Source of the DNA: Tricharina praecox | Taxonomy: Eukaryota | Assembly: GCF_024521635.1 (NCBI RefSeq) | Contig: NW_026250410.1 | Coordinates: forward strand, 248,001-312,000 | Length of the DNA: 64,000 bases | Direction: 5' to 3' | In this document: positions 5,582 to 61,539 of the stretch, in pieces | Layout: each line of letters starts with the position of its first letter | Position numbering within the stretch: position 1 is the stretch's first letter | Notes under the pieces: generated by a model | Databases searched by the model: none | The model's input: only the letters and a program-made list of their open reading frames with translations | Told to the model about the DNA's origin: nothing | Position numbers and translations under genes: made by a program

Positions 5582-7738
5582 CTACTTCTTCTGAGGTATC
5601 AAGCAAGCAGCAAAGAACTTCTCGACCAAGTCGGTGTCCTCGAGCTCGCAGACCAGCGACACGTACTGGTCGGGACGGGAGATGACCAAGCAACCGCGCT
5701 TGGGATCGACGCCGTAGTTCTTGTATGCGTGTCCATGGCCCTCGTGGTGGGACATGTCGTCGACGTACACGGACCAGTAGTCGTGCTGGGGGCGGAGGGC
5801 GGTGGGGAAATCGTGGAGCTCGACCTCGACGCGAGGAGCCGAGTGGATCGTCAAGACGTGGAAGAGACCGTCGCGCTTGCGGTCGGCGGGGGTGTACTTG
5901 TGGATGAACGAGTCGGGCTTGTCGAGGTGGGCGGCGAGCTTCTCGATGCGCGCCTTCTGCTCGGCGTCGCGGACGTCACCGGCGAAGACGGTTACCCGCC
6001 AGCGCGAGTCGGACTTCATCAGGTCCTGGAACTGCCATGGCCGGGAGTCGGACTGGTTCATCACCTGGAAGGAGTTGAAGCGCTGGCCGACGGGGATGCC
6101 GGTGGCGAGCGACTGCTTGGACTCCACGACCGCGGGCTTGACGGGGTTGTGAGGGTCCTCCGTCTCGGGAGCGGGCTTGGCGATGAGGTTGCTGGCCTTG
6201 TAGTCGATCGACACACCGGAGGCGAAGAGGTGGGACTTCTCGAAGACCTTCTTGAACTCCTCCATCGAGACACCGGCCTCGTCGGCGGCGTCCGTGGCGG
6301 GTTTGCCGGAGAACAGCTTGGCGAACTTGCGGTCGAAGTTGATCAGGTCGTGGGCGACGGCAGAGCGCTCGTAGCCGTAAGTGCTAAGAGCCGACCGGTC
6401 AAGAATACCCTGGCAGGCGGCACCGACCTTCCAGGCCAAGTTGTAGGTGTCCATCATGGAGGTGTTCATGCCCTGGCCGGCCTTGGGCGAGTGGGTGTGG
6501 GCAGCGTCACCGGTGATGAAGACACGGTTGTGGCTGGAGAAATCGTCGACAACACGCTGACCGATCTGGTAAGCGGTGAACCACTGGATCTCCTCGTACG
6601 TAATGGTGTAAGGAGCCATGATCTTCTGGCAGGCCTTGAGGATCATCTCGGGCGTGATCTTGGCGCGGTTGACACGGCCTTCGGCATCACGCTCGACCTC
6701 GGAAAGCTGGATGTAGAAGCGCACGAGAGCGCCCTCACGGGGAATGACCATGACGGAGCCGGAGTTGGCGCTGTGGATGGCACATCGGTTGCGAATGTCG
6801 GGGAAGTCGGTGATGGGGACAATGTCCAGGACTCCCCAGACGTAGTCGGTATGCTCACCGAGCATCTCGAAGCCGAGCTGTCTTCGAACCCAGGAGTGGG
6901 CACCGTCGCATCCGAGAACGTACTTGCAGTTGACGATCTCGGTGCTCTCCTTAGCGGTGTCTTCGGCAAGAGCGTTGTCCTCCTCGGCGGTGGTGACCAA
7001 GTTTGTGGAGCGGAAGAGTCCGTTGAGGACCTCGTGACCGAACTGTTCGGGGGCGCTGGCCTCCTCCTTGAGATGGCGCAGGACGACTTTGACCGGGTAG
7101 GCATCGTTGTCGTCGACCTTTGACTCGTCGATTTCCATCGACTCGGGCATAGTGCTGAACTCAACCTGGGCGCCACCATACTTCTTCAGGTTGTCTTTGA
7201 AGTAACCCTCAACCCAACCCTGGTGCAAGACAATCTGCTGGAACCGGGAAAGTCCAGGGCTCATGTCGGGAATGCGACCGGTCCGCACTACGCCTTTTCC
7301 AGACTCGTCGGGGTTCCAAAAGCAAATCTATATTGGGACCGAGTCAGCAAATCGGCGTCATCGCGACAGTGGGGTTGTCATCAGTACTGACCTCGAGCAT
7401 GTGGTTGGCGTCCTTCCAGGCCCGGTCGGCAAAGCCGAAACTCTGAAGAACCTCCAATGTGCGACACTGCAGACCATCGGCCTGTCCGGCAAAGATCTTT
7501 CCGTCGCGCTTCTCCACGATGCGCACCTTAACACCCTTGTGTCGCGCGAGCCATGCGGCGGCCATATATCTGAATAGGCGCGATCGTTAGAATATTGCCC
7601 CACTCCATGCAATGCAAGTCCAACGGCCTGGTACGCCAAATCGTAGATGACCTACCCGGCAGGACCGGCCCCAACAATCAGGACATCGCAGTCGGATGTC
7701 TGCACCTCTTTGGTCTTCGGGACTTGGGCGGTAAGCAT
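5582..7738 (-). CDS. Phenol 2-monooxygenase-like FAD-dependent aromatic hydroxylase (about 668 aa, 3 exons)
   Basis: Exons 7738-7656, 7569-7392 and 7327-5582 join in frame. Motifs: DVLIVGAGPAG (Rossmann), GQADGLQCRTLE, GCDGAHSWVR (DG), GDAAHTHSPKAGQGMN (GD), and a C-terminal thioredoxin-like dimerisation domain ending RPDQYV. Confidence 0.93.
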
Positions 7739-8745
7739 CTTCGCGAGGTGTTTCGTAGGTGAGATGGGTGCTGATGATTTTCGTAGGGAACGAGATGTAT
7801 ATCGCCGGCAATATAGAAGTGGGGTACGGACAAGGGAACCGAAGGATGGATACGGTACGGAGCGGATATATATGGAGATGAGATATAGAGATGATGTGAA
7901 GAGAAACCTGGCCAGAGCAGCGGAGGGAAACAGTTATAACGCGTCCCCTCGCCCCCTCCATCGGCTACTTGCCCCCACCAAGCTGGTTCACCGAATTACC
8001 CCGTGGGGACTTTTCCGCAGGCACGTCCGCCTATCCGCGAGCCCAACCGGATTTCAAAATGCCCGGTCGGGTTGCATCTGCTGGGGCCATCTGCTACCCA
8101 CTTGCCTAGCGCAAGATGCTGGGCGGATTAAGTCTAAGTTGGCGTCCCCCCACATGGCCGTCTAAAAGGTTCCCAGCCGCTCGTCCAGGGGTGGAAAAAT
8201 TCCAGGTCCAGACCCAAGTGCGATGGCCGCCATTCAGCGAACTAGCGCCATCATCATCGGACCTCTGCGCAACTGCGTCGGATGAGTGGCCAGGGTCGCC
8301 CACCCGCTGGCCTTGACTTGGTCCGGGGCTCTTCAGCTGTTGGTGTCGGCCAGACGATCCGAAACATCCGTAGATAGGCATGATAGTCCAACATCCGAAC
8401 CACTGCCTGGCCATGAGGAAGTGCAAACATCCGAGGGCGTTCACGGGACCCGTCCCCATACCCAGTTGCACGGCCGTAGCCGACTTGCACCAATCTTATC
8501 ACGGATGGAAGAATGCGGGAAGGAAATCGAAAGTTGGCAGCGTGATATAGCTCCTCCGGCCTCCTCGTTCGTTCACCTCGCACTGCTATACAACCGCTGA
8601 GTACTTACCTACCCACGCTTTTGCTGCTGATAAACCACACTCTCGAGACCAAGCCAGCGCCCGGAGAGCTCTCCTTCACATTTATCACCACGTCTAAGCC
8701 CATAGAGCCGTTCCTCAGCCACCGAACGCCCCCGGAAAACCAACA

Positions 8746-10572
8746 ATGAGCAAGTACTCTATCATCACTGGCGCACAGGCGGCATTGAGCCAGCTCATTG
8801 CACAGCCAGAAGGCCGAACATTGCCGCTTCCCCAAGCAGCTATCGACTATGCCCTCAAGGTTAGGTTCACGGGCCGGGACCAGGTGTTCCTCCCATGTGT
8901 GATGAAGGAGGTTGAGGCCTCTGCGGCCCTGAAGGCCATTGAAGGCGGCATGGCCGCAGCCATTGGAGAGTTGCGGTTTGGCTTTAAGGAGGATGATATC
9001 GAGATCAACATGGAGCAGGCTGCGGCCTTTTTGTTCCAGGTGAGTGATAGTAACTTCTTGGGTTGCTCCCTTCAGCAATATCCAGAAACTGAGATCAGAT
9101 AATAGGCCTATCTTGCCTCCGTAGACGGACTCACAAAGCTCGATAAAGAAGTGCGTGCCCGTCTCCGGGATACCGACTTCAACCGGGCCCAGAGCAACAT
9201 CTACCGCCGATTGTCGGCCAATCTCTACAAGACTAAGGACAACGGCTTCTACCACATCCACGGATCTCTCGCTGCCTCGCCGGCGCTGGAGATGATTGGG
9301 CTCCCATCTCACCGCGAGGAGTTCACCGATGAGGACTACCACCAGATTCTGGAGTACATCGGCGATGCCGTAGCCAAGTTCACGGTCGAGGAGCTCGAGG
9401 AACTGAACAACGAACGCAAACTAGCCGGCATTTACGCCATCAAGGAAGACGAGTTCCTGGCCTCTGCCCACGGACAAGCCCTGCAAAAGCAGCCATACTG
9501 GCAAGTCGACTCGATAGAAACCACGACACCCCCCGCGCCCTTCCCCGAAAGCTTCCCCATCAACCCAGAATCCAACGACCGTCCCCAAATCCTCAGCGGC
9601 ATCCGCATCCTCGAGCTCTGCCGCATCATCGCCGGCCCAACCGTAACCCGCATCCTCGCCGAATACGGCGCCGAAGTCCTCAAGATCACCGCACCCACAA
9701 GCCCGGACGTGCCCTTCTTCCAGGTGGATGGCAACGTCGGCAAGCACGCCGCCGAGCTGGACCTGAAAACGCCCGAGGGCCGGCGGATCTTCGAGGAGCT
9801 GCTTGCGTCCGCCGACGTGATCGTCGACGGCTACCGTCCCGGCGCCATCGAGAAGCTGGGATACGGACCTACCGCTCTGAAGGAGCTCGCCCAGAAGCGC
9901 GGCAAGGGCTATGTCTACGTCAACGAGAACTGCTTCGGATACGATGCGCCCTTGGCGCACCGCGCTGGCTGGCAGCAGATCGCGGACTGCGTGAGTGGTC
10001 TGGCGTGGGCCCAGGGCCGCGCAATGGGCCGCAACGAGCCCATCATCCCGCCGTTCCCCATGAGCGACTATGGGTAAGAAGACATCCCTCTCCAGCCCGA
10101 CTATCGTACAGAAAGCTGACAGGAATTCGTATATAGTACCGGCTGCATGGGCGCCATCGCGGCGCTGACCGGCCTCTACCGGCGAGCGACGGAGGGAGGC
10201 TCGTGGTGGGGCAAGGCGAGTCTGGTGCAGTTCGACATGTACCTGATGTCGCTGGGCTCGTACTCGAACGAGATCTGGCAGAACCTTGTGTCGAAGCAGC
10301 ACGAGGACTTTGCCCAGATCCGCTACAACGACTCGGTCGACCACATCGGCAAGACCGCGCTCAAGGGCATGAAGAAGGTTGCGCCGTGGTACTGGGATGA
10401 GGAGGATACCTACCTGCAGGAGATCGATTGTCCCGGCTTCGGCGGGAAGATCAAGATCGTTAGGCCCGTGGTCAAGATGGCGAAGACGTGGAATGGTTTC
10501 AATGAGACGAGTAGGCCCAACGGTTACGATAAGGCGGAGTGGTGGATGGAGACAAGCTCGAGCTCGAGCTAA
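8746..10572 (+). CDS. CoA-transferase family III (CaiB/BaiF-like) protein (about 565 aa, 3 exons)
   Basis: Exons 8746-9039, 9106-10073 and 10137-10572 join in frame. Motifs: LSGIRILELCRIIAGP, LAEYGAEVLKI, GK...LDLK, ADVIVDGYRPGA and PMSDYGTG (family III Asp position). It has an N-terminal degenerate half typical of the long fungal members. Confidence 0.9.
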
Positions 10573-10883
10573 GGGGTTTTTCAGAGGAGGGGGTTTTTTT
10601 TGGTTTATGGACCCACCGTTTGTTAGAAGTTGCATATACCCAATATCCAGCCGCGTCCTTCCGTTCGTTCGTCAATGTAATGCAGTCAGAGTACATTTTC
10701 AAATAAATCCTACTGTACTATACATATATATTGGAATGGAAGATTGATATCAATCCTCCAGCAATAAATGAAAGTCAAAGCAATAATACCCAACTCCTAA
10801 GATTACCACGCCTATTCTATATCCCTCCCCCCTCTCCCCTCCCGCTTCCCCCAAAGTATGCCTGTGATCCTTGAGTACATCTC

Positions 10884-13563
10884 CTAACCGGGCGGAGGAT
10901 TCATCTCCATCTCCGTCTGCGCACTCATAAAGAAATTACTCGGCGGGCCGTCCCACGAGAACTCCCACGGGACCGTCTGAGTATCCGCATACCCCGCCCC
11001 ATCACCAGGATCCATCCAGCCAAAGGGATTAAAAAAGTCCACGCCGCCCGCATACATATCCGTGTCCGCCTTGACCAGCGGTCCGCTTCCCAAATCGAAC
11101 TGCCCCGTCACTCCCGGCGTCATACTGAGCCCCGCCATGGGCCCTTTAGAATCGATGTAGGTCGGGAGGATCTGGTTGTTCGGATCGTGTTGGCCGTTGG
11201 ATGCGACAGACACCAGTGCGTGCGCGGCAACACTCTCGCGGCTTGCGGGCTCGGTCGAAACGGCACGGCTCTGGTAGGTGCCCGCGAAGTATTCGTTGCT
11301 GGTGGAGCGTAGCTCGTCCAGTAGGTCTGGCTCCCCCGGGCCTTCCCCAACGTCGCTCAGCCCGCGCGCGTTGGTTCGTTGGGCTTGCTGTTGTTGGTGA
11401 CGCCGCTCGTAGCCTTCGATTAGTGCCTGGTTAAAGTGTAATAGGATGCTGTGGTAGCGTTTCGCGGTGCAGGTCTCCACGCTCGCGCATTCGCCCATAA
11501 GTGCTATCAGCCGCGGCGCTCGGTTGCGGAACTTGGCAAGGGCGTCCTCTTCGTTTTCGTGGCTGTCACGGGGACACAGGACTTGTGGTAGGACACTGAA
11601 TGTCAAAACCAATCCCGCAGTAAACAGATAGTAACTACATCAAAACACCACGGATTAGCAAGAAAAACCGCATAAACGATGGATCATGGGGCATTACATC
11701 AGTGCAGCGTCGTTCCTTTGTAAACTACCCCGTCTCTGCATCCGATGAGCCAAGGCCACAGTCCTCTCCGCTACTAGCACGCAGGCCCAAGCATATCTCA
11801 ACATCTTTCGCTTGACGCTCGACTTGCTCGAAGATCTCCGTTTGTTACATCGGCAGTTCTCGTCGTCCATGATCTCTTCAGTCGAGGCTTCGACGACCCG
11901 TTGCAGGAAAGGCCGAGTTAACAGGATGACGGCATGTAGGTACGCCATGTGCAGTTGCACGACTGCAGCATCGGTGTCATTGTCCAGCGAAGCACATGAT
12001 GGCAAAGACTTCCACCATGTCTTCAGCTCCGCGCTCAACTTTTCGGTAACGTCTCGGGAAATCATTCTTTTCAGGTAGACAAGCTTGACGATATGGCCAA
12101 TTATGACGTGAAGTCGCACCTTGGCCGCAAGCTGATGGATCTGGTGGGTGGTCGCTGGCTGCTCGGCAGAACACCGGCAGTCCGTTAATGGATCGTCCGT
12201 TGGTTCTGTCGAAAACACTGGATCATTGCAGTCTTCGTCCTGTATCGCTAGCGGTCGTCCAAGGGAACATCCTGTGAATCGATCTAGCGAATAAAGCGTC
12301 CAGAACACGAGTCTTCGACGTCTGTAGTAGCTTTCGTCACAGCGGTGCTGCTCAAAGGGGAGCTCTGTCGAGTATATTCGATGCAAGCCAAGGGATTCGG
12401 CAACTCGGATAGCAAGACCGATGTACGTCCATGAGGAATTCCGCTTCGACGCATATTGCATGTATAACGAAAATACTAGCAGCAATCTAACCGACCAAAA
12501 GTCCGCTGACTCAAACACATCCTCCATCCCAGTCCTGGCCGCATCGAAGTATTGCATCCCGTCTCCAGTCATCTCTTCGGGCTGTGTGGTGAAGAACGTC
12601 CCCACGGCGCAAACTGCGTTTAGAAATGCGATGTCTCGGCTTCTGGCTCCCGTTGCCGGCACGGGTCCACCGGTGTACACGACAGAGATGAGGTGGTTCA
12701 TCTCTTCGCGGTCCAAGACATAGTGCACACAGTTGACGTTTGTGAAGAACATGTCGATCAACACCGTAGCCACCTGTGGAGGAGGAGGCAGCGAACCCGC
12801 CACGGTGAATGGAAGCCGTGGGATGATTGGTCGGTCGACGATCGAGTTCTGTGCCAAGTCGGAGGTAAACGTCGAATGCCCGAGCGAGTCCATCACCGTT
12901 TTCCGCACTCGAGCAAGGAACGACAGAGATCCCGTCTCCCCAATGTAAACTGTGACATTGTCAGCCTCGTGTCAACAACCACTCAGGCTTAGCCGTACGT
13001 AGTCGACCACTAGGGTCGGAGAGCAGGCGAGTCTTATGGTCGATAGGCGCCTCAACTTTATCGTCATCCGTGTCGGTTCCGGTCCCGGTCCCGGTCCCCT
13101 CGCTGGTTTCCGCACGACTCGTTACAAGGTGAGTCGTAAGATCCTCAGCCGAGTTTGTCGGATGCGCATAGTAAGTGCCGACGCGCAGGGTGCTCGTGCC
13201 GTCGCCATTGCCCACGTTATGATTACTGCTGTTGTTACTATTGGGGCTGACATCGATCTGCTTATTCTGGACCGGCGAACACGGCGATCGAGTCGACCGC
13301 ACACTGGCACACTCGCTGGGGCCGTCGCTCGTCTGGGTGCTCTCGCGTCGCCGCTTCAGGTGCCGTGGAGGTTGTTCAACGTAGATGCAATCAGCACCTC
13401 TTCTGCTGCAGATGTTACAGGGCTTCTGGCCGTCGCATTTCTGCTTCCGAGATTTGCAGGCGAGACATGCGTTGGCTATCCGCTTCCTCTGCTCGGCGGC
13501 GACCCGTCGCCTGGCCCGCCTCGCCTCATCGGGGTCTGGAACTGTTGACGATAAGGATTGCAT
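10884..13563 (-). CDS. Zn(II)2Cys6 fungal transcription factor with Fungal_trans middle homology region (about 855 aa, 3 exons)
   Basis: ACLACKSRKQKCDGQKPCNICSRRGADC binuclear cluster, a YIGETGSLSFL linker and a GLAIRVAESLGLHR..RRRLVFWTLYSLDR..LGRP middle region. Exons 13563-12999, 12949-11698 and 11634-10884 join in frame. Confidence 0.93.
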
Positions 13564-14227
13564 ATGTGGGTGGAGTCGTATGGAGGTGGATAATGTGCTG
13601 TGAACAGCTCTGCGATTGGCAGTGGCTTTCTCTGGCAGTGGCACTGGGCACCGGGGGGGAGCATGACATGGCCGGCCGGGCGGTCGGTCGATTCGGCAAA
13701 TGGGATGGTGCGCGCGCGCAGCAGTCGGTGGGACACGGAAAGCACGGGACTTTGTCGCGACAAAGCATCGAGAAGTATCGTGCGGGGTCTCGCCAAACAC
13801 GATGGGCCACTCCGGATACCTAGGCACGAGTCTCTACGTATCTCCACGATTCTTTATATCGCACGTCCGCGAAATGCCTGAAGGAAAACACTTTATGCAG
13901 ATATCACTGGATAATCGTTTAGGGGCAGCGATACGTGAGCCCGTGCAAGGACCCCCTAGTGGATATTCACCCGCCCGTCATCACGAATTCGAAGCGATCC
14001 AGTGGTTAAAACAGACTTCCCTCGGGCTCTGTCGAAACACCTCCCGCCATTACTCATACATATGGAAGATTCAGATGTGTTTCGCGCGGTATGTACATAC
14101 GAGCACGACACATGTGCAAATACTTCAGCACAGTTAGGAAGTGCTGACTAAGGCATGACGAACAGCAATCAGGCTCGCCTGCATCATCATCATTACCATC
14201 ATCGTCGTCATTAGAGTACAAACTGCA

Positions 14228-14721
14228 TCACACAACCCTCACATTGCCTGCCTCGTCTGCCTCGATCCTCTTCCCGAGAGCCACAATCATGGGGCTCGCG
14301 TCCAGATACACCTGGTAGAACTGCAACTTCTCCCCCGACTCGTCAAACACCATGCGAGACGACCACTCGGTTGTTAATGAACGTCCGCTCTTGAGCGTGT
14401 AGTCAACGTGGCCAAACATCATCACGGCATCCTCGTCGGCACCAGCGACGGACGGGTAGAGCGCAGTCACGACGTGGTGACGCGAGGACACAGCTGCCCA
14501 CATGCCCTCCCTCACGGCCAGGATTTCTAATGACGGTCAGCTCTGCCCCGGAGACTTCTCGGGGTGCACGGGCTGGACTTACGGTCTTTGCCGACAGCGG
14601 TCTTGAGGCCCATCTTGAGGGTGGCATCGGCGGTGAAGTTCTCGGTGTATCCAACATGGTCCGTTGGGTTGTCGCTCGCGAGGAAGAACGACTCAACAAA
14701 AGCGGCGTGATCCCGAGGCAT
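14228..14721 (-). CDS. Small SnoaL/NTF2-like fold protein (about 145 aa, 2 exons)
   Basis: Exons 14721-14583 and 14526-14228 join in frame (GTAAGT..CTGAC..TAG intron). The pattern FVESFFLASD..YTENFTADATL..G.DQI...R...W..V..RHH......G.V.Y.....EW......LQFYQVYLD matches SnoaL-like proteins. Confidence 0.8.
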
Positions 14722-15068
14722 TGTGATGTTGGTGATGGTATCGAGGTTGTTTTTTGCGTGTGTATGTATGTGTCGGTATGTGTGTGTAGTTTCGTAATAT
14801 ACTCTATCTTGCTATGCCTGAAGGTATTGTTCGGATGTCTGCCTTGAGCTCGAGATGGTCGCGGAGTTGTGACATTCTGGCCGAGATTGCGGCGAAGAAA
14901 GTATCGGATCCATACATCCGAAGGTCCTCGGTTTCTCTACCAGCGGTCCAGATGACGTACACTACCATATCTCCATCTCAGAGTTCATTCACAGCAGACA
15001 AAACTCCCGAGTCCCAAATCCCCATTACGCACTGCTCCAGATCAATTCCGCATCATCAGAGTTTCACC

Positions 15069-15926
15069 ATGTCGTACGCACAACTCAAGAGCGCAAAGGT
15101 CCATTACACCGACATAAACCCAAGTCCGTCGGACGTCTCGGACACAGTAGTCTTCGTTCACGGCCTGGGCTCCTCGCAGAACTTTTACATTCCTCTCACA
15201 TACACACTGAAGAAAGTCAATCGTCGCTTCATCCTCCTCGATTCGCCGGGTGCTGCGCGGTCACCTCTGCCGGCTGGAGATGTTCTCACGGTTCAATCGC
15301 TTGCCGCAACTGTACTCGAGCTTCTCGAGCACCTCGGAGTCGCACAGAATGTCACGATAGTCGGACACAGTATGGGGTGCCTTGTGGCCCTTCACATCGC
15401 ACAGCTTGCGCCGGAGAAGGTTGTGGGCTTGGTCCTGTTGGGTCCAGTCTACCCTTCGGCTGGTCTCGCGGAGGTCTTCGAGAAGAGGATTCCCGCGGTG
15501 AAGAAAGGTGAATATCTTCCTCTTCACGTACAGTCTGGGGGGTCTCTAACGGGATCAAAAACAGATGGAATGGAATCGATGGCCGCTGTGGTCCCCAACG
15601 CCGCTGTGGGCGTGAAGGCCTCGCCACTAACGAGAGCATTCATCCGTGAACTTCTACTAGGTCAGACTGTTGACGGCTACGCTGCATTGTGCAATGCCAT
15701 TGCCACGTCAACTGTTGGGGATCTGTCAAAGGTCAAGCAGCGTGTCCTGATCGTTGCTGGTAGTGAAGACAAGAGTGCTCCCATGGAGGGATCCCAGAAG
15801 TACAACGAGGAGATCGCAAATGCAGAGCTTAAGGTTATCGATGGTGTTGGTCACTGGCATGTCGTTGAGGCACCACAGGAGGTTTCAACGATTGTGGATG
15901 AATTCTTGGGTGCTTCCACAGTGTAA
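15069..15926 (+). CDS. Alpha/beta hydrolase, 3-oxoadipate enol-lactonase (PcaD/CatD)-like (about 266 aa, 2 exons)
   Basis: HGLG oxyanion motif, GHSMG nucleophile elbow, AGSED acid and GVGHW catalytic His. GYAALCNAIA resembles PcaD. There is an in-frame 57-nt intron at 15508-15564. Cluster context supports the substrate call. Confidence 0.82.
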   Translation: MSYAQLKSAKVHYTDINPSPSDVSDTVVFVHGLGSSQNFYIPLTYTLKKVNRRFILLDSPGAARSPLPAGDVLTVQSLAATVLELLEHLGVAQNVTIVGHSMGCLVALHIAQLAPEKVVGLVLLGPVYPSAGLAEVFEKRIPAVKKGEYLPLHVQSGGSLTGSKTDGMESMAAVVPNAAVGVKASPLTRAFIRELLLGQTVDGYAALCNAIATSTVGDLSKVKQRVLIVAGSEDKSAPMEGSQKYNEEIANAELKVIDGVGHWHVVEAPQEVSTIVDEFLGASTV

Positions 15927-16405
15927 ATAGCTTCTCTATACGGTACTTTGGATGGATTTTTGGGTGCTGTCACAATGTAAACAGCTTCTCCATACGGTAT
16001 CCACTTTAGAATACCTAGGTAATTGTAACGATGTTGATCCGAACCTAAGGGATCAGCCTTTGGCCACAAGGCTCGGCCCACGACATCCGCGTGCGCTCTA
16101 CATAGCTGTTGCCATGGTGCGACTTACCGCGGTATTCCATCCGATGGACACCCCCACACACGGCGTCTAGATAGTTACAGAGCTTCATCGGAGCATCTCG
16201 AGATGACCGATGCTTAGGTATCAAGAGGCTACATCCGCCAATCAATCAGCCACCATCTCCAAGCTCTTGGTCCGAGCTCTCCTTCCAGCCATTTCTTTTG
16301 CACGCCAACTTCCCGCTCCCTAACAATTGGTAGCGCCGGCTGTCTCTATTTCCGCCCGTTTGGAGGGGAACCACGCAGCTCCGCACATAGCGCACTTATA
16401 CCACG

Positions 16406-16605
16406 CATCCGACGCAGTTTCACCCCCATCCGACGCCATCAGGGTGCATCTCGTCTACCCCGCAACTCAAGCATCCGACGCATCTGGAGGACCGAGAAGA
16501 TCCTTGCCTATCTAGCTCTTCCTTTCCCCATTCCCGAAGTCCGCCCCGCATTTGAGCTTCCAACCAAATGACACGCATGAAAAATCGTCGCATCCGACAG
16601 TCGGA
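16406..16605 (+). promoter_or_regulatory. Cluster of CATCCGAC(GC) motifs upstream of the dioxygenase; candidate Zn2Cys6 binding sites
   Basis: CATCCGACGC at 16406, 16427 and 16472. CATCCGAC at 16591 overlaps the palindrome TCCGAC-A-GTCGGA (16593-16605). The function is inferred. Confidence 0.55.
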
Positions 16606-16834
16606 GTAGAGGAGTTACGGAGATATCCCCCAAGAAGATAGCCTCCAACCATAGACGAATTGAAAGGTTGTATTCCCTGCCTTCTCGTAGATACATATAT
16701 CCACCAGGATCAGCAATACCCCATTGCCCCAATTCCAATTCCCCCCGCATCTTCCCATTCGATACCTCACGATACCCTCACCGTTCAATCTCCTCGCCTC
16801 TTCTTTCTTTGATACCCCCACACAAAGCCCCACA

Positions 16835-17842
16835 ATGTCCGCCTCCCACAACCCCTCCGCCGACCGCAGTGCGGCCCCTCAGCCCGCCGGTGCCGACCAA
16901 GCTCTCGAGACCTTTAAGGCCACTCTCAGCGACCCTTTCACCAACAATGTAATCAACGCCATGTCTCCCGAGACGCCCGAGCGGGCACGCGTTGTCCTGA
17001 CCTCTCTGATCCGCCACCTGCACTCCTTCGCACGTGACGTGCAGCTCCTCTCGCCAGAATGGATGCTGGGAGTCAACACTCTCAACCGCGCCGGGCAGAT
17101 GTCGGACGACAAGCGCAACGAGGGAGTTCTCGTTTCGGACGTTCTCGGTCTCGAGGCGCTGGTCGACCAGATCACGCAGGAGTCCATGTCGAAGATGACG
17201 GTGGATGCGCTCAAGCCCGCCACGCTGTCGTGCATTCTCGGCCCGTTCTTCCGCGAGGACGCCCCCAAGTACGAGAACGGCGCCGACATCGTGCAGAAGC
17301 ACGGTGAGGATGATCCCACCACCTTCATGGACGGCCACATCTATGATCTGGCTGGCAACCCCGTCGAGGGCGCTGAGATCGACCTGTGGCATACCAACCC
17401 CAACGGATTGTACGAGCAGCAGGACCCCGACCAGCCCGAGTACAACAACCGTGGAAAGTTCTTCACCGACAAGAACGGCTACTACTCGCTCAAGTGCCTG
17501 TGCCCCACCAGTTACCCCATCCCTTACGACGGTCCTGCCGGTGACATGTTGAAGCTCATGGGAAGACAGTGAGTTCCCCTCCGCATCCTCCACCAGTGAA
17601 ACAACCACTAACGCTTCGCCACCAGCCCGATGAGACCCGCGCACATCCACATCATGGTGCGCAAGGCCGGCTACGCGCCTCTGACCACTCAGATCTACGA
17701 CAGCCGCGACCCCTACACTCTCGACGACTCCGTCTTCGCCGTCAAGGACAGCCTGGTTGTACACTTCGTCGACAGCAAGCGGGACGACGTCAAGTACGAG
17801 CTGACATACGACATCCACCTTTCCCAGGCCCACAACGAGTAG
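16835..17842 (+). CDS. Intradiol ring-cleavage dioxygenase (catechol / hydroxyquinol 1,2-dioxygenase; about 316 aa, 2 exons)
   Basis: LIRHLHSFARDV, SDVLGLE, ILGPF and DLWH motifs. Fe(III) ligands lie in GLYEQQD, SYPIP and RPAHIH. The intron at 17569-17625 restores GRHPMRPAHIH. Confidence 0.93.
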
Positions 17843-20984: not shown

Positions 20985-23900
20985 TTACGTCTTCACCAAG
21001 ATCTTTTTAAACTTCTTCCCCAAGTCTCCATGGTGGCCGCCTCCAACTTTATGCGAGGAGGCAGTATCGAATCCTGTGCTGCGCAGTGCACCGTCATCCT
21101 TGCTGAGTCGGACGCCGCGGGCGATGAGCGCACGCTCTTCGGCAAAGACGTTGCGGCGCTCCTGCCGGCGCTCATCGATGGTTTCTTGGCTGAGGTGGCC
21201 GAAGCCGTTGCGGCGACGGTAGCAGGCTTCGATCAGCGCGCCGGCATCGATCAGCCGTCGCGGAATCGTCTGCACCACTTGGAAGATCTCCATCGGGTCG
21301 TTGACGGCTTTGATCTGGGGCTCGCCGGTTTTGAACACCGTCAGGGCGATGCGGAAGAGCGTTTTCGAACCCTCGCTGTGGTGAGATTAGCATCAAACGA
21401 GTAGCTCGATGGAGTGTTCCTTGTACTTACTACCAGAGACAATCCCAGACGCGAAGGATGGACTCGATAGGTAGGCTTCCGATAAAGCCGCTCATGAACC
21501 ACGATGAAGTGCACAGTGTGACTGGTGGAAGTGCAGTACCATTAAGCTCTACCTCACTACCGTCCAATCCTCCACCAATCTTCTGCCAGATGTGTGGTAA
21601 ACTATCTCGGACGCTCGTCATGAGTACCTGTTTTATTCTGCGTTAGAGGGGTCCCCACTAATTCGGAGCGACGCAAGGGAACGGCTTACCCATTGATCCA
21701 CACTACTCCCCTCCAAGTTCATCTCGTGAGTTCCTGGCAGATGCGTCTGGGTCATGATAAACAACATCCAGAAAGCCTTCTCTTCCGGCATAAACAACAG
21801 CAGCAACCCGGCCAGAAAGTTCAGACTCTGGCAGTACCCAATCCTCGGTACATGTATAGCAAACGCACCCAACACCCTTCTAAGTTTTTGCACCATAGGC
21901 GTCTCGAATTGCTTCTCCAGCATCTTGGACATCCGCGTCCCGGGAGGAGGATCGGGCTTATATTTGATATTGTCGGGGAATGTGCGGTGAAGATCTCGCT
22001 CGATCAGCTCCGCATCGGGCGCAATCGACCCCTTCTTAACCAGACTATCGTATACCCCCACATTCTTGCTGAGATACTTCTGACCCCCCGCATACCAGAA
22101 CCAGGCTGCGCCTCTCCATTCCGGAGGTATACCTTTGCGCACATATCGTTTTATTTTGGCCGACTTGGGTGGAAACCTAACTGGCCCCTCTTCTCCGGGC
22201 GTCAACCCGGATTCCCGCAACAGCTGATCCCATTTCTTCCGTCGCCTCTCCAGCGTCTCGTTGTACCGCCCCTCCCATTCTTCGTACTCCGCTAGCGAAA
22301 TGTATTGGCTCTGCTTCTTGAATCTATCGCACACCCATTCGCCGTCAGTAACATGCTCGATGGATGGATGTCAGCCCTAGGGGGGGGGGGGGGGGGGGGG
22401 GGGGGGGAGGGGGGGGGGGGGTCCTACCCGTATCGATCTCTGGGTTCTATAGGCGGGAGCGGTGGATCTGCGATAGCTTCTGGTATTGGGTCTTGTGGCT
22501 GTTCTGGCATATCCGGTGATGTGGTGTCGACCCCTTCGTCCATTTCGCCGTTCTCGTTCGGTACGGAGCTGAGAACCATCTCCTCGACCAGATCCGGCGG
22601 AGCACCAACGTCGGGACCGTCCTCGATCGACGGAGCTGGCGATTTGCGCCGGAGCACCTCGTCGGCTCGCGGTGCGCCTAGTGATTCCCCCTGTGCCTGC
22701 CTCAGTATCTCCTCCTCCAGTCGCTCTTCCTGATCCGAGTGTCGCGACCGCGTTTCCGGGGATGCCTCGCCTCCGAGAACGGAATCCCCCTTCATCCTAT
22801 AGCTACACTCGGAATAGCTGCCGTGCGGGGAATTTCGTCCTCCGCCGAGCACCGAGTCGCCCTTGCTCCGCCGATGCTCAGATTCCATCCCGGAGGTGTA
22901 CATGTCGTCATCCGTGTCGGAACCGTACATCCCTATCGCCTCGTCCACCGTCATCGCGTGGCTGTCTTCGGTCGGTGCTTCGGACGCAGTGGTGAAGCCG
23001 CTCGATCGATTCATGTCGGAAGCTGAGAGCGCCGAGCGGAAGGATGTTCGAATCTCGTCGGCATTGTTGAAGGGACCAAACGAGCTGTGCGGGGAGTTGT
23101 ATGCGCTACTGTTTGCCGAGAAGGGGGGTTGCGGTGGGTAGGGGTGGGTTCGTGGGGGTTCGCGCTGTTGGGGTCGTTGGCGGTTTTCGTAGAGGTCAGG
23201 TGCGCCGTTCGCGGGGATTACATGGGGACCGCGTGGGTGGTTGCGCGGTAGTTGTGGTGGTTGCGGTGCCGGATGCGATCCCGTGGTAAACCCCCGTTCC
23301 CTGGCTATGTTGTTGAAAGCGAGAGGCATCTTGAGGCCCGGGGGAGGTATCGGCCGGCCCTGCGCCATCTGGTGAGGATGCTGACGTACATCGTTCCGAC
23401 TGCCTGGCCTGCTCCCCGGCCTGCTCCCGGGTCTGTGGCCACCGCCACTTATTATCCGTTTTCCAGACGAAGGTCGTGGTGGAGCTCCGACAATCATCCC
23501 CCTCTCGATGCTCTTCTGTCGTATCAGCCTGTTTCCGCCGTGCGCGACAGGTGGCACCTGTCTCCCATCCCAAACTTTGTAGCTGTTAGAGCTGCCACGT
23601 TCGCGGGAATGTGATCGGGCTGGCGGTCTCGTGCCTGGGCCGCCGCGTAGCGTCTGGCCTAACTCTGGAACTGAGGACATCCGCCTCACGCCGGCGTACC
23701 GATTGACTTGCGGTGGTCGATTCGCTGGTTTGTTTGAGGGATGCGACGGATGCGACGGGTGGGGGTTGGGGTGCGAGGATGGCAGGTAGAAAGTGGTGTC
23801 GTCCTCGTCGTCGTCGGAGCGGTACGGGGGAGGGGGAGGGTGCGGCGATGTAGGAGGGGCGACGCCGTTCGGAGGTGGAGGAGGTTGGTGGTTGGTATTA

Positions 23901-24067
23901 TTGATGTGGTTTGGGGGGGTGTCGAGCGGGTGTTGTCGCGGAGGGGAGGGATGTGGGAGGTGGTATTGACGTTGTTGCTGCGGTTGCTGCGGCGGCAACT
24001 GCCGTACTACTCCTTCATCTAATGAGTGCCCTGTCGACCTTGGGTCTATATTCGACGCGGTAGTCAT
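20985..24067 (-). CDS. MSB3: TBC-domain Rab GTPase-activating protein, Msb3/Gyp3-like (4 exons)
   Basis: Exons 24067-22428, 22323-21690, 21627-21431 and 21375-20985. Motifs: RDRYGFKK, RYVRKGIPPEWRGAAWFWYAGG, IERDLHRTFP (Arg finger), GYCQSLNF (Gln finger) and RVWDCLWYEGSK. The N-terminus is long, Pro-rich and predicted disordered. Confidence 0.9.
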
Positions 24068-27000
24068 GGTGGATCAAAGCCGAGATGCTCGAGTCTCGGG
24101 GGCTGGACGGTACTGTGTTCGGGAGACAACAACGCCAGCTCGCCGTTTCCACACGGGGGATAGAAGTAAACGAGTAATATGGGCGAACCAGTTGTTGTAG
24201 CAGCAGGACGGCAAATGTATCCAGCACTGCAGTCGGAATAGATGAAGGTGTGTTGAACGTATGTACACTGGTATGAAGAAGGAGAAGAAGAAGAAGAAGA
24301 AGAAGAGTACCGGAATGGGCGTGGTTCCTGTTCGAGGACAGATCAAAGCGGGAAGCAATAATTAATATCAGAGACCCTGTAGCAGGTACGGGGGGGGGGG
24401 GGGGTGGCAGTTGTAGTAGCAGCAGTAGTAGTAATGGTAATGGTAATGGTAGTAGTAATGTAGTAATGATGGTAGGCAAGTAAGGGTTGGTGGTACTAAT
24501 AACGGCTGGCGTTGTTAGGAGGTAGATTGGGGGCGAGGGGCGAGGGGGAAGTGGTAGCGAGAACGAAAGAGAGGTCGAGGATCGGATTTGTTTGTTTGCT
24601 TCTTCTTCCTCTTCTTCTTCTTGGTCTTCTTCTTCTTGGTCTTCTTCTTCTTGGTCTTCTTCTTCTTGGTCTTCTTCTTCTCCTTCTTCCTCTATGGTAT
24701 CTCCCTTCGAGGAGGTATTCCTCGTATTGTTTGGTCTTTGGACAGCTAGGTAGTGTTCTCCAGACAAGCTCGAGAATAAGAAAGATGGCGGTTACGCAGA
24801 AGTCTAGAATAAGAATGGAATGTGCAAAATGCGGTGTGCAGAAGCAGGCAGGCACGCAGACAGGCAAGCAGTCAGGCAACAAGCAATCCCCACGGCAGCG
24901 GCAGCAAGCAAGCAGCAGCAAGCAGCGTGCAGGTAGCCGACAAGTTCGTCTCGGTAAACCCGTAATCCCGCAGCGGATCAGCGTCGTCGTGTTGCGTGGT
25001 ATGATGGCATCGGGGACGATAATCGACTGGGGGGCGAGACGTGCCGAACAAACAAACGAACGGGCGAGCGAACGGATTCGGTTGAGGAATAAGTTGAGCG
25101 AGAAGGCGAATGAGCGTGGTGATGGTTAATGGCTGAGGTGAGGTTGGCGGTTAGTGATGCAGGTGGTGGTGGTAGTGGTGGCAGTGGTGGTATGCAGTGG
25201 TGGTACGCAGTGGCGATGGTGGTGGTGGTGGTGGTGGTGGTGGTAAACTCACGGGAAACATGAACATGAACAGGAACAGGAACAGGAACAGGAACAGGAA
25301 CAGGAACAGGAACAGGAATAGGAACAGGAAGGAAAGAGGAGAGAGAGAACACACAGACAAGCCGACCGAGCAGCCAATTCGAGGCACGCTGCACTGCACA
25401 CGGTGGTAGTTACTGCGCTGCACTGCGCTGCACGCACGCACCGCACAGCACCGCACTGACAGAGCAAAGAGGAGGGAAGAGGACGAGCTCATCACGCTCT
25501 CTCTTTCGCTCGCTCGCTCGCCGCACCGCTTCCTTTTCCTTTAGCCCCCTCCCAATCCCTTCTCCCAATCCCCCCGAAGCCCACCCGCCGGCTCAAAGCA
25601 GTCAAGCCGGCGAGACGAGACAGCAGGACAGCGACAAGCTGAGATTCGCATTGCTTGCTCTAGCCGAAGAAGGAGATGTTCGGTATGGACCAGCGCTTCG
25701 TTTCTGCAGCGGGCTGGTTTGGTTTTTGGTTGGTTGGGTTGGGTTGGGTTTAGAGCGGGATGCAGTTAGCGGCTGGTGCTGGTGCTGGTGGTCGGAATGG
25801 CGAGGAGGGACTTGGATATCGGCGTAGAATTGGCCAAGCAAAACTACGGCTTCGATATGGGATCGGTGCGAGAGGAGGGAGGAGAGTTACCATCTCATCT
25901 GCTTCCCGACAGTCCTTACTAGCATGATACTCCCCTATGAATGTATCCTCCTCGCGATCCATCCACTCGCTCTGGCCCGAGTAGAGCGGAGCAGAGCATA
26001 TGGCCGGACATTCGACCACGATACTCTCTACTGCACCACGAACGTCCGGCACCTCGTTACGGATTCCGTTTCTCCCGTCTTCAGGCGTGAGTTCGGCATT
26101 TCGATGTTTTCTCGCCATCCCCTCCCCCCGTCCGTCCCCCCTCCCCGTCCACCCATCCCCCGTCCCTCCCCTCACCCCCGTAGACCCATCGACGGCTCCC
26201 ATGGTACAGATCGGGCTAAGATCCGCCACCACCGCTATACACCGCTACCACCTCGCTGCGGCAGCTTGGCAGATCCGAAACGGGATCCGAGGACATTGAT
26301 CCCCAGGACCCCAGGACCCCAGGACCCCAGGACCCCAGGGGAGGGGAGGGAGGGACTCGTTTTTTTTTCTTTCGTCTTTTTTTTTTCGGACTTTCTCTTC
26401 GGACTTTCTCTTCGGACTTTCTTTTTCTCTTTGACGCATGGTGAGCATGAGCGTGAGTGTTTTTTCTCTACCGGACTTGCTGTGTAATATGTCTGATAAA
26501 AGTAATCTTCCGGATTGAATTGAATGCCCGTGGAGCCTATTATGGGTCCGGAAAAAGTACTAGTAAATAAGAGGGTTTGCTCTATATACATTCGATGTGA
26601 TGTGATCGTGTGTGGTGTGGTGCGTCCGCTCCGCCGGGATTTTCAGATGCTCTTCTCTTCGCTGCTCTGCTCTGTGAGAGATAGAGAGAGAGCAGATATC
26701 CGCGTGACGTCTACATACCCTACGATGCTCTGATGCACCGTGTAGCGTCGTCGTAGGTGGTTATCCGGCTTATTTACGGCCCATACAGTAGTTACACCTC
26801 CAGTCCGTCGGAGCGTGCTGCGCGCATGAAGACGCATTTGCATCACGTATTTGCATCTCACCTCGTATCTTCCGAGTCTCATCAAGTCTCAAGTCTCAAG
26901 TTGTTTGCAGTGCAACCACGGCCGGGTTTGTTCCCCCACCCCGCCTCGCCGCGAGCTCAAGCGCCCGCGTCTATGTACGGTAAGTTCTACGTACCTCGCC

Positions 27001-29686: not shown

Positions 29687-30363
29687 CTACTTCGCGTATT
29701 GCTTCGTCCAGTCTTTTGCCGTCTTCTCGAAGCTCGCCTTGCGGTTCTTGTACTCGTCGGCGATGGCGTTTTCGACGGCATCGTCACTAAACCCTGTTAG
29801 CCGATGCCCACGTTGTTCTCGCAGAACAGAACAACGGATGAACAACGCATGACGTGACGTACGGATTCGGCTCCAGCATCAGGCCCCGCGCCATCTCCAG
29901 CACTGCTGCGATCTTGCAGCTGGGCTTCCACTGGTCACTACGGAGTATACCAAGACACATGCTGCCCTTGTCGTCGTTCGAGACGTTGGGATGGTAGATC
30001 TTGGTCTGGAACGAGAGAATCGGAGGCTTGAACGGGTAGTTTTCGGGAAGCGTGAGGAGGAGCTTGAAGGTTCCGCCCTATATACATAGCATGTCAGCAA
30101 GGCTTCCCCAGCGCGCGGGGGAGGTGGGAGGGAGGAATGACGAACAGCGTATGGCGAACCCTGCGGCCCGGTGAGCTGGATGTGCCATTTAAACATGTCA
30201 CTGTCAATCGGCGAGATGCTGATGCCATCCAGCGGGTTCGACGAGATCTCGGCGTACTCCTGTGGGTTTGTCAGTATGTGACCGCCACCACCGCGCCGAC
30301 ATAGCCGGGCAAGCAAAGGAAGGGCGGACGTACGCGAGAGATGCGTTTCTGGGCGTTGGCCAT
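29687..30363 (-). CDS. Ubiquitin-conjugating enzyme E2 (about 152 aa, 4 exons)
   Basis: Exons 30363-30334, 30259-30146, 30077-29863 and 29786-29687 give MANAQKRISREY..GPQGSPYAGGTF..YPFKPP..KIYHPNV..SMCLGIL..WKP..EPNPDD, with the HPN motif and catalytic Cys. Confidence 0.93.
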
Positions 30364-40744: not shown

Positions 40745-41807
40745 TAACACTGGGGTGGTTCACAGTTGGCACGCTCACAGTAGCGGGCAAAGACAGTCTA
40801 CTGATCAGAAGAGAACAGCACCTGTACAATGGCGGTGAAGTAAACGTAGAGGCCCAACTGATTCGCACGGCGCCTTGTTCTTGGAAACAACAACTGAAAA
40901 GGGTTGATGATCGGATAATCACGAATAGGGAGAGAGAGTAAATCCAAGAGTAACAATGTTTGATTGTTATGGCTTAACTCCCAGTGATGGTAGTCGATGC
41001 CTTCTCTACGACGGAAAGCCGTCGGTCTTTATACCGACACGGCTCACCCCGCCTGATGTCTAACTATGAGCGCTCGGGAGAGTATTACCTCGGTAATACA
41101 CAAGAGTATCCTGTACGAGATGTGGACGATGGTTCTAGGCACTGGGTCTTCGGGTACCGAACCCTTGTCTATCTTCGATTTTGGTGTTTCCGAGCGGAAC
41201 TCGTATGCACCCTTGAGTTGGTCGGCGACTACAAACGACGGAGCCGCAGCCTATTGGCTTGATGACTTCCGTGTCCTTCCGGTGACTACTATCTCGCAGA
41301 TAGTATGCGTCTCCTTATTGTCTATGACGTGCCTCAAGTGCCGCAGCAATCGCAGTATGACTGCAGAAGTATGTATATGCAACTCGACAAGTTTTGATCC
41401 AAACTTCTCTAAAGTACTGACAGATGACAGGCTTCCCTTCATATACCCACCGGGTACGTTTCGCCTCGCCTGTCCGGCACGACCGTTCGAGGGTTATTTT
41501 GACCCCAAATAAAACTTTATTTGTATGGGAAACGGAAACTAGTATGCTTTTACCATGGCGGCCACGGAGGATAACCTTTGACAACCTGCACGTCTTGATG
41601 AGATTTTCAACAGGTTTTCCTAGGTAATTGAGCGCACTCCAAAACTCATCAATGAGTCCATAGCCACCCTCCACGAGGTTCTAGTGGCCATCTGTGAGGT
41701 TTGAATCTCGATCACAAGTTATCACTCGTCCCAAATCCACTGATTCTGGCTGAGTTCTTCCAATGACTGCCCATAGTAATGGTTGATGATGACCAACAGC
41801 GGTACTA

Positions 41808-60952: not shown

Positions 60953-61539
60953 ATATGATCTTCTTCTTTCTCTTGTGGACGTCGTTGTTTGCGCTTCAGC
61001 AGATTGTTCTTAAATCAATGGAGTTATGACTATTTGCGATGTGTTCCTCGTGATTTCGGGCGATGCCTGTGTTCCTTTACCCGCTTGCTTGTTTGGTTGT
61101 CGTTTACGAGAAATGTGAACAAACGGAAATTCTTCCCCAGGAATGCTGATGTTTCAAAGACCCTGTGAGCGGCGGTGCAGTGCCCATCGGCGTGGTCTGT
61201 CCTAACGGGTTAGAGCTCAGGTGTCCACACAAAGCATCATCGCCCTCCCAAAGCCTGCTTATTTGCACTTCCCTTTCACTGTCCTCCTTGGTTCCGATTC
61301 CGTCCAGGACCTCCCATACCTTCCCCATGCATCCACTGACCATACCCCGCCGACGTCAGGGTCAATGCGGATGCAACGGTACTTACTACTCCTATAAGGT
61401 TTACACTACCACGTCTTTGTTCTGTTGTAGGGGCCTCCCACCTCCTATGGCCTTTGTTCTCCTCGGCCGGATATAACAAAGCAGCTATGTGGGAAGAAGA
61501 CGCCCACTCACACTCTATTACTTCCACCACCACAGCAAG

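Follow-up and report, generated by a model that had tools for sequence, protein, structure and literature searches.

A 12 kb locus of Tricharina praecox very probably encodes the full route from phenol to 3-oxoadipate, together with a Zn2Cys6 transcription factor as its likely activator; we infer the enzyme activities, the substrate and the link between the factor and a promoter motif from sequence. In this proposal, a flavoprotein would hydroxylate phenol, or one of its simple substituted derivatives, to a catechol, an iron dioxygenase would open the catechol ring to give cis,cis-muconate, a protein with the fold of the family III CoA-transferases would convert this to muconolactone, an NTF2-fold protein would generate the enol-lactone by a double-bond shift, and a serine hydrolase would release 3-oxoadipate; the remainder of the route would fall to a CoA-transferase encoded elsewhere, on contig C61, and to a thiolase. 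We consider the route to be fully encoded because the CoA-transferase-like and SnoaL-like genes appear to supply its two middle steps. The original prediction had also read the locus as a complete path from a phenolic substrate to 3-oxoadipate, whilst naming enzymes for only three of the five steps, and orthology now supports that reading.

Structure of the locus

The locus spans positions 5582-17842 of the window (the whole 64,000-nucleotide stretch of DNA that was analysed) and comprises six adjacent, intact genes, three on the minus and three on the plus strand:

5582..7738, minus strand: putative phenol 2-monooxygenase (FAD/NADPH), 668 aa; exons 7738-7656, 7569-7392, 7327-5582
8746..10572, plus strand: family III CoA-transferase-fold protein, 565 aa; exons 8746-9039, 9106-10073, 10137-10572
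10884..13563, minus strand: Zn2Cys6 transcription factor, 855 aa; exons 13563-12999, 12949-11698, 11634-10884
14228..14721, minus strand: SnoaL/NTF2-like protein, 145 aa; exons 14721-14583, 14526-14228
15069..15926, plus strand: alpha/beta hydrolase, 266 aa; exons 15069-15507, 15565-15926
16835..17842, plus strand: intradiol dioxygenase, 316 aa; exons 16835-17568, 17626-17842

As had been predicted, the six genes are contiguous and include two divergent pairs (hydroxylase with CoA-transferase, SnoaL-like gene with hydrolase). Pfam domains were found for five of the six, the SnoaL-like gene being the exception. RNA contigs from two runs of unspecified growth condition (run X3, with scraps of coverage, was left out), show splicing at the predicted sites for eight of the nine predicted introns: both of those in the hydroxylase (in both runs), those of the CoA-transferase, both in the factor, and those of the lactonase and dioxygenase. 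The spliced form of the SnoaL-gene intron was seen in neither run. The block contains no transporter gene and no gene for a step past 3-oxoadipate.

Conservation of the cluster

The grouping of the genes is not a matter of chance, because metagenome loci repeat the same genes, order and orientation. The SnoaL family is present in ten such loci; two hold all six genes in identical order and orientation, two hold five and one holds four (these last three each being broken by a contig end), and the five clustered loci look like two organisms rather than five. Gene order in other genomes had been put forward as a test of the original prediction, and it is conserved, both in these loci and in P. 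omphalodes, P. domesticum and S. brunnea, where the genes have accessions that follow one another; in two yeasts, homologs of the dioxygenase and cycloisomerase genes have adjacent locus tags. A tblastx comparison of the flanks of metagenome loci L014 and L016 with those of the window found nothing in common.

A candidate regulator and its sites

The factor, which carries domains PF00172 and PF04082, is most likely an activator of the enzyme genes that acts at repeated candidate sites with a CGG triplet, as we infer from the promoters. A CGG triplet is the usual Zn2Cys6 half-site, and the heptamer CATCCGA contains one. This motif, or the shorter CATCCG, recurs in three regions (no strand assigned):

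7739..8745: divergent promoter, hydroxylase/cycloisomerase; five CATCCG, at 8279, 8365, 8392, 8428 and 8502
14722..15068: divergent promoter, isomerase/lactonase; two CATCCGA, at 14832 and 14915
15927..16834: dioxygenase promoter region; seven CATCCG, 16084-16591

Dinucleotide shuffles of these regions gave 0.81, 0.09 and 0.74 sites, respectively. Across the 2.9 kb of cluster intergenic DNA there are ten copies of CATCCGA against 0.22 expected, for a motif picked after the fact, within the window; its background in four other stretches of the genome (eight in 39.7 kb, or ~0.6 per 2.9 kb) is above that of the window flanks. Three of the five hydroxylase-promoter CATCCG sites are kept in place in L016, and in both relatives compared the promoter of the hydroxylase ortholog shows CATCCGA enrichment; the remaining promoters of L014 and L015 do not, and the factor gene itself has no copy of the motif in its promoter.

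The enzymes could act as proposed and the Zn2Cys6 gene still be just a conserved neighbour, or the heptamer be read by another factor. There is precedent in C. albicans, where Zcf10, encoded inside another cluster, is reported to be dispensable for growth on hydroquinone (PMC12625712), and CATCCG is a common word: a genome-wide scan for close pairs returned 754 matches, among which regulon members could not be singled out. We nevertheless regard this alternative as improbable, given that the factor keeps its position in metagenome loci L014-L018 (54-87% identity) and that the motif carries the triplet expected of its class. Furthermore, the Scedosporium catechol cluster has a factor, and Zcf25 is reported to control the equivalent C. 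albicans cluster, catechol supporting growth only when this factor is present (PMC12625712). Activation by the linked factor is, as such, the reading that we carry forward.

The proposed steps from phenol to muconate

The hydroxylase combines PF01494 with PF07976 (FAD-binding and C-terminal dimerisation), is the strongest of four PF07976 matches in the genome, and has phenol 2-monooxygenase 1PN0 as its top PDB match (E 1.3e-180), scoring 605 bits where 3-hydroxybenzoate hydroxylase scores 304; on these grounds we class it as a putative fungal phenol 2-monooxygenase (EC 1.14.13.7), closest to the solved phenol hydroxylase. The dioxygenase contains PF04444 and PF00775, with Tyr193, Tyr227, His251 and His253 as candidate iron ligands by motif, and shares 80% identity with a Pyronema protein whose annotation notes similarity to P86029 (C. 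albicans HQD2). It can be classed as a predicted catechol 1,2-dioxygenase, with an indirect placement in the catechol clade: its identity to homologs from Aspergillus and yeasts, two of which adjoin cycloisomerase genes, is 57-61%, whereas a second dioxygenase on contig C28 (35% identical to the cluster enzyme, and divergent from an FAD monooxygenase gene) is 37-39% identical to them.

The top PDB matches of the cluster dioxygenase are hydroxyquinol dioxygenases, and some of its homologs are so named, which could point to a hydroxyquinol or protocatechuate route, in which hydroquinone or resorcinol would be the substrate of the hydroxylase, and hydroxyquinol or protocatechuate, rather than catechol, that of the dioxygenase. 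The C. parapsilosis enzyme MNX3, a phenol 2-monooxygenase, is indeed a hydroquinone hydroxylase, and the genome search returned just two intradiol dioxygenases, which leaves room for one of them to have a broad substrate range. Such a route would however leave three catechol-branch enzymes (muconate cycloisomerase, muconolactone isomerase and enol-lactonase) in the cluster and, set beside the identities given above, the C28 gene with its divergent partner fits a hydroxyquinol role; no maleylacetate reductase-family gene is linked either, with PF00465 matches on contigs C13 and C1 but none in the window. We therefore hold a hydroxyquinol or protocatechuate route to be very improbable; the hydroxylase probably has some side activity towards diphenols, which would not conflict with the catechol route.

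The middle steps and the probable lactonase

Judged by sequence, the cluster CoA-transferase (PF02515) is the ortholog of AN3895/MCI1, the assigned ascomycete muconate cycloisomerase. It is identical to A. nidulans AN3895 at 293 of 565 residues (52%) and is the best match when the genome is searched with AN3895 (E 5.6e-126; next 1.9e-58), whilst a tree of 24 selected rows, with its deep forks unresolved, places the two in one orthogroup with the C61 paralog apart, in agreement with a Pyronemataceae placement and with no sign of transfer. FAMeDB (PMC13094099) assigns the muconate cycloisomerase function to AN3895 and MCI1, both of CoA-transferase family III, and that of muconolactone isomerase to the SnoaL/NTF2-like proteins AN4061 and MLI1. 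According to a review, deletions of AN3895, AN4061 and AN4531 accumulate muconate, muconolactone and enol-lactone, respectively; one paper found some catechol-branch genes of A. nidulans to be non-essential on salicylate. A view that two steps were missing, based on the absence from the genome of any match to PF02426 (the bacterial muconolactone isomerase family) and from the block of any beta-propeller or enolase gene, was dropped after the FAMeDB assignments.

The SnoaL-like gene, present as a single copy in the genome, encodes a protein identical at 103 of 145 residues (71%) to P. domesticum protein 408583, given in a published supplement as the sole AN4061 match of that genome (PMC8579045), and at 53 of 121 (44%) to the C. 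dubliniensis MLI1 ortholog (per FAMeDB); two of the motifs that the family conserves are also encoded by AN4061 primers. Through these two proteins it can be assigned to the AN4061/MLI1 family of putative muconolactone isomerases. Its exons have no Pfam or NCBIfam match. The fold comes from the ESM Atlas, and structure matches are to many tied NTF2-like folds (VIA-align, Z <=8.6), which are weak and carry fold information only; a model predicted from a nine-sequence alignment reached a middling pLDDT of 71.5, and a Foldseek search gave nothing at E <= 0.001. The alpha/beta hydrolase is likely a 3-oxoadipate enol-lactonase: its top NCBIfam matches are PcaDC and PcaD (both under their cut-offs), Ser101, Asp215 and His243 form a candidate triad by motif, and the syntenic P. 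domesticum gene_5189 is annotated as an enol-lactone hydrolase (PMC8579045).

We give very little credence indeed to an incomplete cluster, in which the substrate of the CoA-transferase would be some unrelated acid, or its step would come after 3-oxoadipate, with genes elsewhere providing ring closure and isomerisation; the protein does retain the fold of family III and its catalytic aspartate, contig C11 holds one unlinked gene of the beta-propeller lactonase family, which has the fold of the Trichosporon cycloisomerase, and AN3895 was, in the account consulted, assigned from mutant accumulation rather than a purified enzyme, but the gene is the ortholog of one whose deletion accumulates cis,cis-muconate, 3-oxoadipate CoA transfer is assigned to KstA/AN10495 (with a PF01144 gene on C61), and the SnoaL gene falls within the AN4061/MLI1 family.

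Assigning both middle steps to the cluster corrects an annotation gap, in that screens on the bacterial catB/catC families overlook both enzymes. In the accessible text of the Pyronema study, no cluster is described and the cycloisomerase step is given to a different gene, the beta-propeller gene_11790, at 29% coverage (PMC8579045).

A possible role for CoA in ring closure

The cluster makes a question testable: how does a CoA-transferase fold close the muconate ring? Asp419 aligns with the active-site aspartate of solved family III members, is invariant in 40/40 homologs, and occupies what we take to be the position of the aspartate that forms acyl-anhydride and aspartyl-CoA intermediates in the family; its catalytic role is drawn from the titles of PDB mutant entries. 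Formyl-CoA transferase, CaiB, SUGCT and AMACR share the fold and this aspartate, but the present protein (~560 aa) has ~250 extra N-terminal residues, with no sequence match to any solved chain, and an assigned cycloisomerase step.

The conserved catalytic aspartate suggests that cyclisation may be CoA-activated. We put at about even the chance that muconate cycloisomerase in ascomycetes still functions as a CoA-transferase, using CoA catalytically for a metal-free ring closure. An acyl-CoA would prime the enzyme, and Asp419 would activate the C6 carboxyl of muconate as a mixed anhydride or muconyl-CoA; this would ease attack of the C1 carboxylate on C4 with no need for a metal ion, and CoA would be handed on to the next muconate after cyclisation. 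If true, muconate ring closure would have evolved convergently a third time, in addition to the enolase and beta-propeller enzymes, with its mechanism concealed behind CaiB/BaiF annotations throughout Ascomycota. Our literature search found no account of the cycloisomerase mechanism, and the term ‘muconyl-CoA’ was absent from the 15 papers listed out of 25.

Plus-strand RNAs apparently crossing the divergent promoters

Two unexpected introns point to spliced plus-strand transcripts that seem to run across each of the divergent promoters:

7731..7786, plus strand: intron spanning the hydroxylase start codon; the RNA crosses the promoter into the cycloisomerase gene
14089..14165, plus strand: intron in an RNA antisense over the SnoaL gene and running into the lactonase

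The first junction was found in one of two runs (short side 28 letters; canonical signals), and the second in both (with a canonical donor, branch site and acceptor). At the matching places in L014 and L016 the antisense splice signals are missing, although L016 gave one unrelated candidate. We tentatively raise the idea, with rather low expectation, that such spliced long-leader or antisense RNAs might hold the cluster off without inducer, in the manner of yeast GAL10-ncRNA. These RNAs and the CoA mechanism are, to our minds, leads of more interest than the cluster.

Comparison with known systems

The original prediction overrated the interest of a cluster that includes its own factor, as regulator-containing catechol-branch clusters have been published for both C. 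albicans and Scedosporium. The C. albicans ZCF25 cluster (MCI1 C4_02190C, MLI1 C4_02200C, OEL1 C4_02210W and HQD2 C4_02230C; PMC12625712, PMC13094099) shares with the present one four catechol-branch enzyme families (that of the lactonase probably) and a linked Zn2Cys6 factor (a likeness of class and linkage); the C. albicans phenol hydroxylases PHH1 and PHH2, however, lie outside it on chromosome R, whereas here the hydroxylase is inside. In Scedosporium apiospermum (SAPIO_CDS8717-8721 and SAPIO_CDS6464-6465; PMC8283699), a factor, phenol 2-monooxygenase, catechol 1,2-dioxygenase and CaiB/BaiF-type cycloisomerase are clustered as they are here, but that cluster has an MFS transporter, and the isomerase and lactonase are reported from a different scaffold; the present locus keeps its six genes together and lacks a transporter.

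The A. nidulans branch (AN4532, AN3895, AN4061 and AN4531; Martins 2015, as cited in PMC12388069, PMC7842363 and FAMeDB) is the source of the genetic assignments; judging from the locus numbers, AN4531 and AN4532 are neighbours and the other two genes lie apart, so that the branch is spread over three sites, which fits the earlier expectation of partial scattering in Aspergilli and contrasts with the one cluster seen here. In P. domesticum, the hydroxylase (gene_5185), CoA-transferase III (5186), AN4061 match (5188), lactonase (5189) and dioxygenase (5190) follow the gene order of the present locus, and gene_5187, by its place in the series, should be the factor; on char, expression of the hydroxylase (-4.27), CoA-transferase (-2.81) and SnoaL gene (-1.74) is lowered, not raised, the dioxygenase change is non-significant, and the lactonase is printed as +1.59 (PMC8579045).

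The chemical route is common to bacterial catBCA/pcaD and to the Trichosporon beta-propeller cycloisomerase, but the folds of the middle steps differ, bacterial CatB having the enolase fold. Clusters of this kind in Dikarya are reportedly the subject of a 2019 survey by Martins, in which Pezizomycetes may already be included. The compact phenol-to-3-oxoadipate module, with its candidate regulator and site, may be of use in muconate engineering and in soil-fungus ecology. In itself it adds little: two partial arrangements, published for C. albicans and Scedosporium, are joined in a Pezizomycete, and the cluster is their union, a new example rather than a new system.

The six-gene cluster and its setting

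The block of six genes put forward in the original prediction was recovered as six intact models with canonical introns, filling window positions 5582-17842 (the window being C83:248001-312000 of a 38.4 Mb assembly). In order along the window, with flanking housekeeping genes below:

Minus strand, phenol hydroxylase
8746-10572, plus strand, CoA-transferase III gene (putative muconate cycloisomerase)
Minus strand, Zn2Cys6 factor
14228-14721, minus strand, SnoaL-like gene (putative muconolactone isomerase)
15069-15926, plus strand, alpha/beta hydrolase (putative enol-lactonase)
Plus strand, intradiol dioxygenase
21633-24073, RabGAP-TBC
29787-30733, ubiquitin-conjugating enzyme
43480-45660, Mus81-like nuclease
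60323-60919, p24/GOLD protein

Pfam domains were found for five of the six genes (phenol hydroxylase domains; CoA_transf_3; Zn_clus with Fungal_trans; Abhydrolase_1; Dioxygenase_N with Dioxygenase_C), the Pfam search being without a match for the 145-residue SnoaL-like protein. Contigs of two sequencing runs, X1 and X2, skip eight of the nine predicted introns at the predicted places and are thereby shown to derive from RNA. In neither run is the SnoaL intron spliced out. The closest named homologs come from Sphaerosporella, Pyronema and Geopyxis, which the CoA-transferase III protein joins with full support in a tree built from 24 selected rows.

No further aromatic-catabolism genes were recognised in the flanking frames scanned within the window. 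A 692-residue frame (61477-63555) has no Pfam match, nor do 55073-57864 and 41793-42293, whose motifs point to possible Ulp-type protease fragments and to a possible retroelement relic, respectively; some 1.2 kb of degenerate short repeats (53264-54498) leaves several frames open.

A proposed route from phenol to 3-oxoadipate

We propose that the hydroxylase would convert phenol to catechol and the dioxygenase catechol to cis,cis-muconate, which the CoA-transferase III protein would close to muconolactone; the SnoaL protein would then isomerise this to the enol-lactone, and the hydrolase would release 3-oxoadipate. The following step would fall to a PF01144 CoA-transferase on another contig, C61, the sole one found (at least one gene). 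The claim that the locus encodes this full route is borne out by orthology, with both middle enzymes assigned. A first reading, in which those two steps were absent because the genome has no match to the bacterial isomerase family PF02426, was dropped after the FAMeDB family assignments.

In the FAMeDB supplement (PMC13094099), AN3895 of A. nidulans and MCI1 of C. albicans are CoA-transferase family III muconate cycloisomerases, and AN4061 and MLI1 SnoaL/NTF2-like muconolactone isomerases; a review (PMC12388069) reports that salicylate-grown deletions of AN3895, AN4061 and AN4531 yield muconate, muconolactone and enol-lactone, respectively. AN3895 (recovered as P0130) and the window protein have 293 of 565 residues in common, and the window gene is the top AN3895 match in the genome (E 5.6e-126); next comes a paralog on C61 (E 1.9e-58), set apart from the other 23 rows of the tree on a very long branch. 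This paralog (L026, 4263-5830) is a long family III protein, 35-39% identical with the aspartate kept, and adjoins an FAD monooxygenase and retroelement remnants. A structure model made for the Pyronema ortholog, confident at pLDDT 92.6, matches family III structures, and Asp419 of the window protein aligns to their active-site aspartate, kept in 40 of 40 homologs. Closure of the muconate ring is a conjugate addition for which the C6 carboxyl must be activated. We propose, with the chances about evenly balanced, that it is activated as an aspartyl anhydride or as a CoA thioester, with CoA recycled; no account of CoA-activated muconate cyclisation was found in the literature searched, three key subscription papers lying outside that search. 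A single 840-residue Stylonectria model (P0103) fuses a CoA-transferase III to a dioxygenase, and is probably two neighbouring cluster genes joined by annotation.

Judged from sequence, the SnoaL gene is a member of the AN4061/MLI1 isomerase family, the link running through proteins of relatives. Its product matches P. domesticum protein 408583 at 103 of 145 residues; the supplement of PMC8579045 gives that protein as the sole AN4061 match in its genome (45.8% identical). With C. dubliniensis XP_002419874, the MLI1 ortholog per FAMeDB, it agrees at 53 of 121 aligned residues. Published AN4061 primers, when translated, give two motifs conserved across the family, and Arg52, Trp56, Arg62, His64 and Gly85 do not vary among 60 near-full-length members (picked from 150 hits and four seed rows). 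The invariant arginines may hold the carboxylate, with His64 or Asp17 as base in ketosteroid-isomerase-like chemistry.

Of the remaining enzymes, the hydroxylase has phenol 2-monooxygenase 1PN0 as its top solved relative, at 605 bits; 3-hydroxybenzoate hydroxylase scores 304. The dioxygenase carries all four ligand motifs, and a simple catechol call is weakened by its top PDB matches, which are hydroxyquinol dioxygenases; in favour of that call, its Pyronema ortholog is annotated as similar to P86029, the C. albicans catechol dioxygenase, and the window enzyme is 57-61% identical over the shared region to four Aspergillus and yeast homologs, as against 37-39% for a paralog on contig C28. Least secure is the putative enol-lactonase, whose top NCBIfam matches are enol-lactonases that score under the bacterial cut-offs.

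The C28 paralog (L024 4746-9901; C28:1831245-1836400) is transcribed divergently from an FAD monooxygenase, with a flavin-reductase-like gene coming next; this is probably a small hydroxyquinol-branch cluster. The genome has at least three PF00775 matches, in the window, on C28 and, with a secreted look, on C30, and may lack a dedicated protocatechuate dioxygenase. The window enzyme has 60% identity to a Sphingomonas dioxygenase and 54% to a Rhodospirillales one (P0351, P0438), the former value slightly exceeding the 54-57% of Aspergillus and yeast homologs; cross-kingdom transfer is possible, and a preprint reports candidates for catA transfer close to Pezizales orthologs.

A shared promoter motif and unexpected RNAs

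CATCCGA ranks first of 2,308 7-mers in the four cluster intergenic regions. It occurs there at 10 sites, where the rest of the window would predict 0.22 and four other genome stretches about 0.6. All 10 lie in the three enzyme promoters (7739-8745, 14722-15068 and 15927-16834) and none upstream of the factor. As a fixed motif it is enriched in the hydroxylase/cycloisomerase promoter of two metagenome relatives (3 against 0.11 in L014; 2 against 0.22 in L016), without clear enrichment in their remaining promoters. Three of the five CATCCG sites in the window's copy of this promoter line up in place with L016. The CGG core of CATCCGA suits a Zn2Cys6 half-site, and the 7-mer is a candidate binding site for the cluster's own factor.

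In a char-versus-sucrose comparison for P. domesticum, the values in the supplement of PMC8579045 are -4.27 for the hydroxylase, -2.81 for the CoA-transferase, -1.74 for SnoaL and -0.74 (not significant) for the dioxygenase; the lactonase, gene_5189, is printed as +1.59, the other columns of its row implying about -1.56, and no factor row was found among those listed. On these values, char is no inducer of the block. The same table names AN4061 muconate isomerase (row gene_5188) and takes gene_11790, a beta-propeller gene with a signal peptide, for the cycloisomerase.

Over the SnoaL gene and the hydroxylase start there appear to be spliced antisense RNAs of the plus strand that continue through the divergent promoters, their strand being known at the splice joints only. 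An intron at 14089-14165 is present in X1 and X2, in contigs that run unspliced across the SnoaL gene into the lactonase (13825-16020), and one at 7731-7786 crosses the hydroxylase start in X2 (7700-8745); in each run the 1 kb hydroxylase/cycloisomerase promoter is covered by contigs. Each of the two introns carries canonical splice signals, and upstream ATGs number 19 and 15 in the leaders that they imply. The X1 dioxygenase contig starts 546 bases upstream of the start codon. Such RNAs resemble those of GAL10-ncRNA repression (PMC12566771). Contigs can prove neither single-transcript continuity nor strand beyond the joints, and neither L014 nor L016 conserves the splice signals; leaky transcription is therefore no less likely.

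Conservation of gene order

Among ten metagenome loci retrieved with the SnoaL alignment, L014 and L015 agree with the window in all six genes, in their order and in their orientation; L016 and L017 carry five and L018 four, each truncated by a contig end, and these five loci look like two organisms. L014 (8140-10000) and L015 (8594-10000) are near-identical, differing by about 450 bases in an isomerase/lactonase spacer that is 4-5 times as long as its counterpart in the window and devoid of CATCCG. In more distant fungi, dioxygenase, CoA-transferase and SnoaL genes are adjacent in L022, and CoA-transferase and SnoaL in L019 and L021; L020 and L023 are too short to show linkage. Accession numbers point the same way: in P. 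omphalodes and P. domesticum those of the dioxygenase and CoA-transferase differ by four, and in S. brunnea those of SnoaL and the dioxygenase by two. In two yeasts, dioxygenase and CoA-transferase homologs have adjacent locus tags. P. domesticum gene_5185, 5186, 5188, 5189 and 5190 bear annotations matching the cluster (supplement of PMC8579045).

Comparison with known clusters

As described in PMC12625712, C. albicans clusters four of the same enzymes with Zcf25, a factor shown there to be necessary on catechol, but has its phenol hydroxylases outside the cluster, whereas that of the window lies inside. The S. apiospermum cluster, as described in PMC8283699, unites factor, hydroxylase, dioxygenase and cycloisomerase as in the window, but its isomerase and lactonase sit on another scaffold, whereas here both are within the cluster. 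The window locus is the union of these two arrangements; an unusually complete new example of an already published type of fungal cluster.
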